Positions 3,841 to 31,366 of a stretch of 32,000 nt of DNA are shown piece after piece; positions within the stretch are counted from its first letter, which is position 1, and each line of letters opens with the position of its first letter. The translations under genes and the position numbers were made by a program. The notes under the pieces are model-generated. The model had not been told where the DNA came from. It made no database searches and worked only from the letters and a program-made list of their open reading frames with translations. This DNA comes from Candidatus Saccharimonadota bacterium (GTDB lineage Bacteria > Patescibacteriota > Saccharimonadia > Saccharimonadales > Saccharimonadaceae), in assembly GCA_020160975.1 (NCBI GenBank), contig JAIUPJ010000001.1, positions 420,001-452,000 on the forward strand. The letters are read 5' to 3'.

Positions 3841-4732
3841 TATTACGCCGCCTTACGATTTGGATTGCACCAAGAAGAACTAGTAAAGCTAAGATAAATA
3901 ACAGCCACTTAGGGGCCACAACCACGTATTGATCGGATTGAGTGTGCTTGCCAAGAACCGTTGCTTCACTATGCACTTTGTATACGCCGATCCACGCCGT
4001 TTTATCCCAGCTAATATCGACCGCACGAGTCGTATTTGGCAGTACATAGGCCTCTTGCTCATTTTGATACTTGACGTTACCAAACAAATCCATGACTGCG
4101 AATCGAGTTTTTGCTGCAAAATCTGTTTTTCCGGTATTTTCGATTCGAATTGTTGAGGTGAGTGGCGGTACAGACGTGAACCATGGCGTATCAATTGAAG
4201 CGACTTTTCCACTGGTTTCGGTTGGCCCATTGACAGTCGAGTAAAGCAGTAGTGCCAGTCGCTTTTTTCGGGAAATTCCCGTACTTTCAGCAGTTTTTGG
4301 CTGTGTCTCCACAAAAATCACTCCATAATGTCCGCCCGCTGTCGCCCCTTTGCTGACATTCATTGTAAAGGGAATGTGAATCGTTTGCTTCGGTTCAGCA
4401 TGCCAGGTTGCTTTTTCAAAGCTTATCCAGCGATATGCATCGGCGTTTGCCGGCTGACTAGTGAAGTCTGGCGTGTATGCCTCGTCTTTTACTGAGTAGG
4501 GGCCAGTATACACTTGGAAATCATACGCGGTATCACCATAATTGATGATCGTAAATTCATCGCGCACTACCGCTCCTGCGTCTACTGTCAAATGTTTAGT
4601 GGGCGGCGACAGCGTGATACTTTCTTGCACCTCTTCGGCTTGTACAGAAGCGCTGCCGACAGTACCAATAAGCAACAGGGCTACACTGAGCCCTGTGACA
4701 AATTTGAACCCATAACCCCTATGCTTTTTCAC
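3806..4732 (-). CDS. Secreted two-domain beta-rich protein with C-terminal membrane anchor (DUF916/DUF3324-like, CscA-type architecture; inference)
   Basis: 308-aa ORF with a GTG start at 4732 and signal peptide (LLLIGTVGSASVQA/EE). Contains the motif GGHYGVIFVETQP, a second beta domain, and a C-terminal helix WLLFILALLVLLGAIQIV plus RRRNN tail. Paralogous in layout to ORF 754-1611. Confidence 0.6.
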   Translation of the reverse strand: MKKHRGYGFKFVTGLSVALLLIGTVGSASVQAEEVQESITLSPPTKHLTVDAGAVVRDEFTIINYGDTAYDFQVYTGPYSVKDEAYTPDFTSQPANADAYRWISFEKATWHAEPKQTIHIPFTMNVSKGATAGGHYGVIFVETQPKTAESTGISRKKRLALLLYSTVNGPTETSGKVASIDTPWFTSVPPLTSTIRIENTGKTDFAAKTRFAVMDLFGNVKYQNEQEAYVLPNTTRAVDISWDKTAWIGVYKVHSEATVLGKHTQSDQYVVVAPKWLLFILALLVLLGAIQIVRRRNNGSTTAFRPRR

Positions 4733-4746
4733 TGTACCCTATGGTA

Positions 4747-5364
4747 CTATTTTGCAGTCGCCGTGTAAACAACTTGGTCGGTGTAAGTTCCAGTCGGCTT
4801 TGTGTTGTCGACTTTTGCGGCGTACCACACCACCGTCTGGTCGTTTGAGGCAGTGGTAGACGTGCTCTTGAGAGTGTAAGGAGTACCCTGTGCCGGGATT
4901 GCCGACCATTTTGAAGTGCTAGTTGTGCTGTTTGTTTCGACAGAATAGGTTGCATCAAACCCGGTACCGCCAGGCAGCGCAAATCCCCAAGTGTTGGTGG
5001 CAAGTGCGGCGCCACTTCCAATTGCATTTGCCGATGCAGCAATGGTGTTGCCACCGCTCGTGAGAGTGTAGGTGGTATCGGCATCGGCCAGTGTCAAAAG
5101 ATATCCTAATGTGTCGTTTGTGTTCACCGTCAATGTATCGCTTGCGCTCGACAGCACTGCGCTCGCACCAGGTGTCAAGTTGATATCGACGTTATTGCTC
5201 GTGCCCTGAGAAGTCGTAGTGAGAGTAATCGTTGCCGCAACAATTGCACGAACTGTTGGGCTTACCGTCACTGCATCTGCCTGGAACGACGGCACAGTAA
5301 CCAGTCCCAGCGCAAGTGTCGCACCCGCTGTTGCCAACAAAGATGATTTGAAGATTTTTTTCAT
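4747..5364 (-). CDS. Small secreted beta-rich surface protein, WxL-like domain (inference)
   Basis: 205-aa ORF with signal peptide MKKIFKSSLLATAGATLALGLVTVPSFQA/DA and Thr/Ser/Ala-rich beta-strand composition. It has an internal TWGF motif and the C-terminus GTYTDQVVYTATAK. Homologous to the C-terminal domain of ORF 1608-2996. AAGGAAA SD-like element upstream; first gene of the cluster. Confidence 0.6.
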   Translation of the reverse strand: MKKIFKSSLLATAGATLALGLVTVPSFQADAVTVSPTVRAIVAATITLTTTSQGTSNNVDINLTPGASAVLSSASDTLTVNTNDTLGYLLTLADADTTYTLTSGGNTIAASANAIGSGAALATNTWGFALPGGTGFDATYSVETNSTTSTSKWSAIPAQGTPYTLKSTSTTASNDQTVVWYAAKVDNTKPTGTYTDQVVYTATAK

Positions 5365-5432: not shown

Positions 5433-6002
5433 CTAGCTAAGTAGTAATTTATACATCAATTCTTTTGTTCGCTCGTTGCTCGTGTGCTGAATACTCTGCA
5501 TGCCTGCAACCTCCGCCCCCTCGCAGTTGTCAGCAAGATCATCAATCATGACACACTCCTCGGGTCGTAGGCCAATTCTTTCAGCCATCAGTGTAAATAT
5601 GACGGGGTTTGGCTTTGCCAGCCCTTCTTGATACGACAGTACTACTGTATCGAACAGCTCATGTAGCTCCTCGCCAAAAAGCTCTTGCATCGTCCGCTCA
5701 CCGATATTACTGAGCATGCCTAGTTTGTACTCACCCTTTGCTCTCAGCTCTTTGATATACGCCACCAGCTCTTTATTTCGCACGTGCTTTTCGCGCAACA
5801 TTTTTTCAATATCACTAGGTTGCAGTCCGAGGACCTCGGCCGTCTTGGCCAAATATTCATCATATGAGATATACCCATAATCCTTCTGCAGATTGATGTC
5901 ATAGATCTCCTGACGCCGATCGTCTGGGGCCATCAACGAAATCAAGGTCAGGCTCCCACTATAGAGCACCCCAAAACAGTCAAAAATAATCCCGCGTATC
6001 AT
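5433..6002 (-). CDS. HAD-superfamily hydrolase/phosphatase
   Basis: Motif I is right at the N-terminus if translation starts at ATG 6002 (MIRGIIFDCFGVLY; DxF/DxG type). A later LSN and a C-terminal IDD acidic motif are present. The longer track ORF (to 6071) would overlap the upstream gene; TATACT-N6-ATG sits at 6014-6002. Confidence 0.8.
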   Translation of the reverse strand: MIRGIIFDCFGVLYSGSLTLISLMAPDDRRQEIYDINLQKDYGYISYDEYLAKTAEVLGLQPSDIEKMLREKHVRNKELVAYIKELRAKGEYKLGMLSNIGERTMQELFGEELHELFDTVVLSYQEGLAKPNPVIFTLMAERIGLRPEECVMIDDLADNCEGAEVAGMQSIQHTSNERTKELMYKLLLS

Positions 6003-29671: not shown

Positions 29672-30257
29672 ATTTTTGCGCCAGAGGCAGGGTGATGGTA
29701 CGCGTAATATCAGCTCCCCGTGAAAGAGCCGCGATCGGTCGATATTCATATCCGACGTGGATCAGTCTGGCGCCCCGTTTTTTTGCCTGCTGAAGAGCGG
29801 GAAGGAGATCGGTATCGGCACTAACGATAACGAGTTCTGTGTCCTCGCTCGCCTCCACGACGGCACGTACCGCCAAACCGACGTCAACGCCTTTCTCAGT
29901 CAATTTCCAGCTCGCGTGCTGACATTGTTGGCATGGATCAAGTTCGCGCGCACGCAGGTATCCTACCTTAATGAACTGGATTTTTTGCTGCTGAATGTGA
30001 TTCATGAACTTTGCCTGATTACGAATATACCGTTCAGACTTCTCGCGCAGTTCGTCGGTCATGTCATACCGCTGCAGGCGTGCCCCAAACCAGAGAATCT
30101 CGACGGGCTTGTTGTCGCTAAGGAGCTCTTCGAGCAGTCCGCGAAAATCAAAGGCCTGAATGATCTCACGTGCAGCGCGCTTTCCTTGCGCATCAGCAAG
30201 AAGTGTCCGTATACCATACACGAGATTTTCGCCATCGATCAACACCACTCGTCTCAT
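29655..30257 (-). CDS. NYN-domain (LabA/DUF88-like, PIN-fold) protein, putative RNase
   Basis: MRRVVLIDGENL ... EKGVDVGLAVRAV ... LVIVSADTDLLPALQQAKKRG are the conserved acidic motifs of the NYN/LabA family. Start taken at ATG 30257 (alt TTG 30275). It overlaps the mntH start by 17 nt. Confidence 0.8.
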   Translation of the reverse strand: MRRVVLIDGENLVYGIRTLLADAQGKRAAREIIQAFDFRGLLEELLSDNKPVEILWFGARLQRYDMTDELREKSERYIRNQAKFMNHIQQQKIQFIKVGYLRARELDPCQQCQHASWKLTEKGVDVGLAVRAVVEASEDTELVIVSADTDLLPALQQAKKRGARLIHVGYEYRPIAALSRGADITRTITLPLAQKYVGSA

Positions 30258-30319
30258 CTTTACATCATACAACAAAAGACCTCGCGAGGACCGAAATCCA
30301 AGCGAGGTGCTGTACCTGT

Positions 30320-30348
30320 ATTGTACCGTATCATAAACGATGCGTCAA
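30320..30348 (-). promoter_or_regulatory. Sigma-70-type promoter for the NYN-mntH operon: TTGACG-17 nt-TACAAT
   Basis: Minus strand: -35 TTGACG (30348-30343), a 17-nt spacer and -10 TACAAT (30325-30320). It is followed by a leader hairpin ACCTCGC...GCGAGGT and TCTTTTGTTGT (30276-30312). Confidence 0.5.
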
Positions 30349-30540
30349 CATTGCAATAATCATTTGTCAATAGCAGTAGCGTTATATCTCTGTTATGCTT
30401 CATCTCTTTGATGACAATAACACAACATAGGATAACGTCTACCCATAAGTATGAAAAATCATAGTTGACAATCTAATGATTTGCAATCATAAGAACTATC
30501 CCTGCGCTGCCCTTTTCGTAGCGATCGAACTAGCTACTTG

Positions 30541-30583
30541 TGTGATGAATATCACAGACCATCAGAGTCGGCGGGGGTATACT
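30541..30583 (+). promoter_or_regulatory. CRP/FNR-type palindrome TGTGA-tgaata-TCACA (30541-30556) centred ~41.5 nt upstream of the predicted start site of a TATACT (30578-30583) promoter
   Basis: A perfect match to both half-sites of the TGTGA-N6-TCACA consensus, and the only such site in the window. The promoter has no recognisable -35 or TG extension, as expected for an activator-dependent class II promoter. Confidence 0.45.
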
Positions 30584-30606
30584 AAGAAGCACAAAGGAGG
30601 TGGAAG

Positions 30607-30708
30607 ATGAATACAGATAATCAAGAAACCCCACCAGATAGCGGCGAAGTTCGGTCGTGTAATTGCTGCAAGTGTTGCACTTGCAATGACGGATGCGACT
30701 GCAAATAG
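30607..30708 (+). CDS. Unannotated 33-aa cysteine-rich peptide (metallothionein-like or RiPP-precursor-like)
   Basis: Below the track cut-off. AAAGGAGGTG SD sits 4 nt before ATG 30607; the stop is TAG 30706-30708. Translation is MNTDNQETPPDSGEVRSCNCCKCCTCNDGCDCK, with 8 Cys in the last 16 residues. It has its own promoter and a strong terminator. Confidence 0.6.
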   Translation: MNTDNQETPPDSGEVRSCNCCKCCTCNDGCDCK

Positions 30709-30741
30709 TTCACTCTGCACTAGAGTGCACCCTCGCAATAA

Positions 30742-30770
30742 TACACGGCCTACCTAGGTCGTGTATTTTT
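30742..30770 (+). terminator. Rho-independent terminator after the Cys-rich ORF (also faces the convergent CYTH gene)
   Basis: CACGGCCTA-cc-TAGGTCGTG (9-11 bp including one G-U) followed by TATTTTT. It is preceded by a smaller hairpin CACTCT-gcact-AGAGTG (30711-30727). Confidence 0.65.
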
Positions 30771-30778
30771 ATGTATCG

Positions 30779-31366
30779 CTATAACGCCGCACCAAATTCC
30801 TGCGGAACCGGGTCGTCAAACCGTACCAGCGGAATGTCGATAACGCCGCGCACGGACATAGCTGGATAGACCATTCGGTACACCACATCCACACCGCCAA
30901 ATACCGCCTCATCCCAGCTGAATCCAAGTATTGCCGCGGCCTCGCGGATAGAGGCTTCGTTGTCACCCTCGATTTCTATATACGGAGGCATCCAGGGCCA
31001 TACATCGATCACCACCTCAACATCCCCAAGCTTCCAGGTTTCGCGACGCGACTCTTGGTAGGTGTGAAAAATCATGCCACTGGCTTCCAGTAGTGCCTTA
31101 GTAGCATCAAAATCATCCACGGTTGTTTCAATCTCGTTCGCCGCCTCGATGCCAGTTTTTAAATGCTGCTTGTAGGTAAGCGTCACTTTGTTTCCCTCAT
31201 CGCGTAGGCGCAAAAAAGCATCCTTTGCCGCCATGTCAGGAGTTTCCATCAGTGCACGGCGCATCAATCGCATCGGCTGCTCGCACACCGCGCCAGCAGC
31301 AAGCAGACGCTGCTGGATCGCATCAATAGTAATATTGATGAACTTTACTTCGATTTCCGTCTTCAT
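30779..31366 (-). CDS. CYTH-domain protein (class IV adenylyl cyclase CyaB / triphosphate tunnel metalloenzyme family)
   Basis: The N-terminal ExExK signature is MKTEIEVKF. It is followed by FLRLRDEGNKVTLTYK, ANEIETTV and YIEIEG, typical of the CYTH beta-barrel. 195 aa; the start is 4 nt after the nrdB stop. Confidence 0.85.
   Translation of the reverse strand: MKTEIEVKFINITIDAIQQRLLAAGAVCEQPMRLMRRALMETPDMAAKDAFLRLRDEGNKVTLTYKQHLKTGIEAANEIETTVDDFDATKALLEASGMIFHTYQESRRETWKLGDVEVVIDVWPWMPPYIEIEGDNEASIREAAAILGFSWDEAVFGGVDVVYRMVYPAMSVRGVIDIPLVRFDDPVPQEFGAAL

Follow-up and report, generated by a model that had tools for sequence, protein, structure and literature searches.

The window analysed here, a stretch of 32,000 nucleotides from a Saccharibacterium, carries on its minus strand nrdB (cut by the window end), a CYTH gene, an NYN gene, Nramp/MntH, pyrG, argS, mscL, a helicase gene, dnaG, rpoD, polA, and others. 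Homologues of the neighbouring proteins are named as Candidatus Saccharibacteria or Saccharimonadales. The CYTH gene (30779-31366, minus strand) is the last gene of the nrd cluster; it is predicted to encode a triphosphate tunnel metalloenzyme, and its start lies 4 nt after the nrdB stop codon. Between the CYTH and NYN genes is an ORF of 33 codons with eight cysteines, MNTDNQETPPDSGEVRSCNCCKCCTCNDGCDCK (30607-30708, plus strand), whose stop (30708) is separated from the convergent CYTH stop (30779) by a gap of 70 nt. The ORF is preceded by a spacer of 331 nt (30276-30606), and it is in this spacer, which makes up ~1% of the window, that a perfect CRP-type palindrome is found.

Is the 33-codon ORF a gene? 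It is annotated by no public gene caller, as judged by exact-sequence look-up, and searches of Pfam (even at E <= 10), NCBIfam and the PDB gave no match to the 33-residue peptide. A protein search with a 40-residue in-frame extension of the peptide gave no candidates. Nevertheless, the ORF has the surroundings of a gene. A Shine-Dalgarno sequence that can be read 5 nt before the ATG, AAGGAGGT (30594-30601, plus strand), precedes it, and an intrinsic terminator, consisting of a 12-pair stem followed by a T run (30740-30767, plus strand), would end a predicted monocistronic transcript. The peptide is 24% cysteine, and a role in metal or redox buffering may be proposed from this composition only. 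Membership of a metallothionein family was considered and rejected, given the lack of any match in Pfam, NCBIfam or the PDB and a likeness that is compositional only.

Comparison of strains adds to this picture. Sixteen strain-level copies of the locus are available, of which five are identical to the window and 11 are variant, and their 631-nt alignment contains 49 variable positions. The spacer varies at 27 of its 331 positions (~8%) and the 3' untranslated stretch at 11 of 70. Within the ORF, codons 2-10 have accumulated five non-synonymous changes and one synonymous change among strains, while the Cys-rich codons 11-33 are invariant in 10 of the 11 variant sequences, with 0 variable positions in 72 nt (P ~0.002 at the spacer rate, an estimate from the alignment counts). 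The Cys-rich part of the ORF is, by this reading of the alignment, under constraint, and the N-terminal part is under none. The one exception is sequence L010, which lies at a contig end and has C18Y, a stop at codon 24, and C32F (the equivalents of window positions 30659, 30678, and 30701); this is either a decayed copy of the peptide gene or an assembly error. Taken with the Shine-Dalgarno sequence and the terminator, the strain-level constraint makes the Cys-rich ORF look like a real gene.

The palindrome itself, TGTGATGAATATCACA (30541-30556, no strand assigned), reads TGTGAT-GAAT-ATCACA and is a candidate CRP-type consensus operator. A scan of both strands of the 32-kb window for exact TGTGA-N6-TCACA returns this single match against an expectation of 0.03, and a match arises in 3 of 100 dinucleotide shuffles of the window. 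The palindrome also agrees with the longer consensus TGTGAT-N4-ATCACA at all 12 of 12 positions, for which the analytic expectation of an exact match is ~0.002 per window (32000/4^12). When up to two mismatches to the longer consensus are allowed, there are 3 matches in the window as against 1.87 expected. The 331-nt spacer also has, 134 bp upstream of the perfect one, a weaker second CRP-like site with two mismatches, TTTGATGACAATAACA (30407-30422, no strand assigned). A spacer of this length would be expected to contain about 0.02 sites of this quality, a comparison that is post hoc and of modest significance.

Could such a palindrome have arisen by chance, with no regulatory role, so that the peptide gene, if it is expressed at all, is transcribed from a constitutive weak promoter? 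Dozens of textbook motifs could have been recognised, and the expectation of 0.03 has to be multiplied accordingly. Moreover, no further site of the TGTGA-N6-TCACA type, and hence no second strong site, is present in ~52 kb of the genome (the window and 10 kb beyond each end), a point in favour of chance. On the other hand, chance accounts poorly for a 12/12 match located in a spacer that makes up so small a part of the window, and for a second site, even a weaker one, in that same spacer.

The surroundings of the palindrome bear on this question as well. Between the palindrome and the ORF there is a single good -10 hexamer, TATACT (30578-30583, plus strand; 5/6), which is invariant among strains and predicts a transcription start near 30590. 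The distance from the centre of the palindrome (30548.5) to the first T of TATACT is 29.5 bp, and the centre would be at -41.5 if transcription started 7 nt after the hexamer, the start being predicted. A -10-like hexamer (at least 5/6, with A2 and T6) would fall at the class II spacing, give or take 1 nt, with a probability of ~0.019, a value to be read with the fact that TATACT was picked as the -10 after the fact; TATACT is one of just three -10-like hexamers on the plus strand of the spacer. This is a further argument against a chance palindrome. At a spacing of 17 nt, the -35 position is occupied by the weak CAGACC (30555-30560, plus strand; 3/6), onto which the right arm of the palindrome extends, and the promoter scan found no TG extension before TATACT.

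Most other gene fronts in the window are of a different kind, scoring 9-11/12 against sigma-70 or having a TG extension. Among them are TTGTCA-17-TATAAT before mscL, TTGTAA-17-TATAAT, and TTGACG-17-TACAAT before the NYN gene, together with several fronts that have the TG, and an RpoD-type sigma factor is encoded in the window. The 29.5-bp spacing, the weak -35, the lack of a TG, and the canonical promoters elsewhere thus form an architecture that is coherent for an activator-dependent class II promoter. A sequence-only reading of this DNA had proposed a perfect CRP-type site at 30541-30556, the only TGTGA-N6-TCACA in 32 kb, and both statements hold in the two-strand scan, with correct coordinates. 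It had also placed the site at a class II position relative to TATACT, and the spacing to this hexamer fits, the start site again being a predicted one. The same reading had described the promoter as lacking a -35 or TG, unlike others in the window, which agrees with the scores given above, and its positions for TATACT, for TTGACA at 30465-30470, and for CATAAG 17 nt further on are all accurate. The site is real and statistically unusual, and the promoter in which it lies looks activator-dependent.

The last two of these hexamers form an alternative promoter candidate, TTGACA-17-CATAAG (30465-30493, plus strand), whose -10 is poor and lacks T6, and which fell short of the promoter-scan criteria. 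Another alternative upstream start is offered by an extended -10 candidate from the promoter scan, TGTTATGCT (30391-30399, plus strand). These upstream candidates are relevant to the idea that transcription begins upstream and that the palindrome acts in RNA, as a small hairpin in the 5' UTR affecting stability or translation. A 6-bp stem is indeed present in both the minimum-energy and the centroid folds. However, the stem has 6 pairs only and a loop of 4 nt, the folding z-score of the region (-1.6) is not significant, and no Rfam match is obtained at the gathering threshold or at E <= 1. The hairpin is also 37 nt from the Shine-Dalgarno sequence and would not sequester it. An RNA element is very unlikely on these grounds.

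More consideration is due to the possibility that the palindrome is the operator of a repressor, or of another family whose sites have a TGTGA/TCACA core, and that the bound protein would block RNA polymerase at the -35. Overlap with the -35 suits repression as well as it suits class II activation, and TTTGATGACAATAACA is situated just downstream of the extended -10 candidate, which is a typical repressor position. Rex is one such factor; its consensus is TTGTGAA-N4-TTCACAA, with a core identical to that of CRP, and a redox-responsive repressor of this type might be thought apt for Saccharibacteria, which are largely fermentative. By contrast, positions 6 and 11 of the palindrome are T and A, as in CRP sites, and not A and T. 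By inspection only 10 of 14 positions match Rex, those at 1, 7, 12, and 18 being different, and the outer T/A of the 18-mer is G/G here. A repressed promoter would, in addition, normally keep a -35 or TG that can be recognised, and here both are lacking. As a specific candidate the Rex operator was rejected, as it has in common with the palindrome only the TGTGA/TCACA core and is a worse fit than CRP. Repression in general we regard as unlikely, while keeping it in view.

Which protein might bind an operator of the CRP type? Pfam searches of all larger ORFs of the window, and inspection of a further 10 kb on either side, found no Crp/Fnr or other recognisable DNA-binding regulator in these ~52 kb, about 5% of the ~1-Mb genome, and the lack of a regulator nearby counts in favour of an accidental palindrome. 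About 950 kb of Saccharibacteria loci, which represent a single genomic neighbourhood, likewise gave no tblastn match to CRP or FNR of E. coli. Five FNR-family regulators have been described in the complete genome of 'Candidatus Teamsevenus rhizospherense' (PMC6031116). The family therefore exists in the phylum.

Conservation of the site was considered both among strains and among species. In the strain alignment, 21 nt spanning the site (30538-30558) are invariant in all 16 sequences, but this carries no weight because such invariance is expected by chance in ~17% of cases at the spacer rate. Among species, 80 loci from species-representative Saccharibacteria genomes were compared. The order nrdB-CYTH-(Nramp)-pyrG-argS recurs widely in this set, and the peptide and NYN genes are absent from these CYTH-anchored loci. 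The closest relatives of the NYN gene (77-80% identity) adjoin an MmeI-type restriction-modification gene, and beside them there is no peptide gene and no palindrome. Since the peptide gene and its promoter occur, among the Saccharibacteria loci compared, only in this species, a cross-species footprint of the site is not possible.

CRP-type sites are not clearly enriched in the non-coding DNA of the related loci. In ~81 kb of such DNA (the 80 loci and the window), TGTGA-N6-TCACA with at most one mismatch occurs 5 times, including TGTGATGAATATCACA, against ~2.4 expected. One perfect TGTGA-N6-TCACA, TGTGACATATTTCACA, is present upstream of nrdB at a contig end in another species (locus L015, UBA669, positions 6-21). 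It is followed after 28.5 bp by CATAAT, then by a Shine-Dalgarno sequence and the nrdB ATG at 90, a geometry that equals that of the window site to within 1 nt and that counts in favour of the operator reading. Other species do not keep a site of this type in front of nrdB. The lack of enrichment in related genomes, and of any conservation signal above chance, counts in favour of an accidental palindrome. Weighing these observations with the 12/12 match, its placement, and the spacing to the -10, we consider chance a doubtful explanation of the site, yet one that deserves real weight.

The gap in which the peptide gene resides is worth describing in its own right. Between the CYTH and Nramp genes (window 29750-30778; loci L011-L014) there is a variable insertion spot, which is filled here by the peptide and NYN genes, in L012 and L014 by other, unrelated sequence, and in L011 and L013 by an ORF resembling an IS200-type (Y1) transposase, as read from its translation. 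Within 10 kb of the nrd cluster, locus L001 contains a Replic_Relax-family gene (248-1099) and a Y1-transposase-like gene (4518-5126), which hints at mobile DNA near the cluster. The NYN gene has a leader with a feature of its own (window 30258-30318, minus strand): a hairpin (CACCTCGC...GCGAGGT) with a U run after it, positioned between the NYN promoter and the start codon. This hairpin is kept in NYN relatives that have a different upstream neighbour (L211, L215, L216); its stem is invariant and its loop varies, and covariation is absent. Attenuation is one conceivable function; another is as a site at which the NYN RNase cleaves its own message.

Could the signal be supplied locally? The sequence-only reading had drawn attention to the convergent CYTH-domain gene 70 nt downstream of the ORF, a distance that is correct, and had raised the possibility of a local cyclic-nucleotide circuit. 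In its full form this idea holds that the CYTH protein is a class IV adenylyl cyclase, the cAMP from which activates CRP and thereby switches the peptide gene on. In its favour are the proximity of the two genes, the public annotations that name homologues of the CYTH protein 'class IV adenylate cyclase', and a weak match to the cyaB equivalog TIGR00318. However, the match scores 35.6 bits against a cutoff of 57.95. Among solved structures, the closest to the CYTH protein is that of the triphosphatase SaTTM (E = 1.2e-6), and at E <= 1 there is no match to any CyaB chain.

Three signatures of true class IV cyclases have been set out by Vogt et al. [quoted passage not shown] All three are missing from the CYTH protein. 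Its N-terminus is MKTEIEVKF, with 3 residues before ExExK and no HF motif; a protein that starts MKTEIEVK cannot carry HFxxxxExExK. Residues M1, E4, E6, and K8 are invariant in 26 homologues, as are R53 and R55 of the retained LRLR. The IEIEG motif is also kept, with E131 and E133 invariant and aligned to E135/E137 of SaTTM. By the published criteria (PMC8233210), the absence of HF and the presence of RxR and ExE mark the protein as a triphosphatase and not as a class IV cyclase; our prediction is a triphosphate tunnel metalloenzyme that belongs to the nrd cluster.

The adjacency of the CYTH and peptide genes, for its part, looks incidental. In most of the 80 Saccharibacteria loci the CYTH gene comes after nrdB, as a rule at a distance of no more than a few hundred nt, while the peptide and NYN genes occupy a variable gap only in this species. 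The proposed local circuit did not survive these comparisons, with none of the three cyclase signatures, a score below the TIGR00318 cutoff, and SaTTM as the closest relative, and we judge a cAMP circuit run by the CYTH protein to be most improbable.

What, then, is the likely function of the palindrome? Our prediction, to which we attach about an even chance, is that a CRP/FNR-family regulator uses it as a class II-type operator and thereby drives the gene for the Cys-rich micro-protein. A dimeric factor of the CRP/FNR family, encoded elsewhere in the genome, would bind the palindrome. The operator would lie ~41.5 bp upstream of the implied start, in the place of a functional -35, and the bound regulator would recruit RNA polymerase directly in the class II style. 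Activation would give a short monocistronic transcript of ~180 nt, ended by the strong terminator and encoding the 33-residue peptide with its eight cysteines. Redox state, oxygen, a cyclic nucleotide, or a metabolite are candidate effectors; the effector is probably not cAMP from the neighbouring CYTH gene. The transcription start, the binding protein, and activation rather than repression are elements that we infer.

Small Cys-rich ORFs are also found inside the nrd operons of Saccharibacteria. ORFs of 11-26 codons that start with ATG and are rich in cysteine lie between nrdA and nrdB in 9 of the 49 species with adjacent nrdA and nrdB (loci L001, L002, L017, L018, L035, L042, L045, L065, and L077). 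Seven of the nine also pass a stricter scan, having a Shine-Dalgarno-like sequence before the ATG. The copy in the species studied here, MDKKCNCSCECCMNCSECNVNLTDDK, is just past the right end of the window (L001 8341-8421), and that in L042 is MTETTCTCECCKNCDNCTK. None of these nrdA-nrdB ORFs is annotated or has a Pfam match. Their compositional likeness to the window peptide suggests a link between Cys-rich peptides and ribonucleotide reductase. It may even be that there is an unrecognised Saccharibacteria family of micro-proteins tied to ribonucleotide reductase, of which the window carries an extra, longer copy under a CRP/FNR-type activator-dependent promoter, although we see this as rather a long shot.

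Upstream of nrdA in L001 there are three palindromes (5630-5645, 5741-5756, and 5774-5790) that resemble NrdR boxes, ACGCTATATATAGCGT being an example, and ordinary control of the nrd cluster by NrdR seems indicated. The window palindrome was itself considered as an NrdR box and rejected, as the arrangement of the NrdR consensus is the opposite one (ACAC...GTGT); real NrdR-like boxes are those upstream of nrdA.

Transcriptional regulation in the CPR/Patescibacteria is almost unexplored, and a consensus operator with class II geometry provides a concrete and inexpensive test case, with a single palindrome and a single tiny gene. As a prediction, the operator is a further instance of a known element type in a poorly studied phylum. 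If the proposed family tied to nrd were true, a metal- or redox-buffering peptide for ribonucleotide reductase would be coupled to an environmental signal in a CPR bacterium. The Cys-rich micro-ORFs that lie within or next to nrd operons, all of them unannotated, may merit separate study. The CYTH result has a wider bearing. CYTH genes of Saccharibacteria are widely labelled 'class IV adenylate cyclase', a label used in published metabolic comparisons of the group; two such comparisons (PMC8386444, PMC9040727) report an annotated 'adenylate cyclase', the family being unnamed. Because the CYTH protein and 25 aligned Saccharibacteria homologues carry the triphosphatase signature, cAMP signalling should not be inferred from these proteins.

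How does the locus compare with known systems? In the class II CRP- and FNR-dependent promoters of E. coli, such as galP1, the regulator site is centred at -41.5. The window site resembles these promoters in both half-sites, which match TGTGAT/ATCACA at 12/12 positions, and in having its centre 29.5 bp before the -10, with a poor -35 overlapped by the site. It differs in its host, a Saccharibacterium of the CPR/Patescibacteria, in its flanks, which are not A/T-rich as they are in the 22-bp CRP consensus of E. coli, and in its target, which here is a 33-codon ORF with a predicted start. We know of no CRP regulon described in Saccharibacteria. The canonical FNR box is TTGAT-N4-ATCAA and not TGTGA-N6-TCACA. 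Proteins of the same family as the FNR-family regulators of Teamsevenus could supply the binding protein, and no binding sites for those regulators are reported (PMC6031116).

The CYTH protein has ExExK, LRLR, and IEIEG in common with SaTTM (Saci_0718, PDB 7NS8) and other CYTH triphosphate tunnel metalloenzymes (PMC8233210). The match to SaTTM is remote, and the Saccharibacterial CYTH gene differs in having a conserved place right after nrdB, a position from which a part in nucleotide or phosphate metabolism may be suspected. As for the peptide, small metallothioneins offer an obvious comparison, those of fungi that bind copper having ~25 residues. The peptide is likewise very short, with 24% Cys arranged in C-x-C and C-C clusters; it has no detectable homology to these proteins, and the likeness is in composition only. 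By the same measure of composition, its nearest relatives are the tiny Cys-rich ORFs in Saccharibacterial nrd operons.
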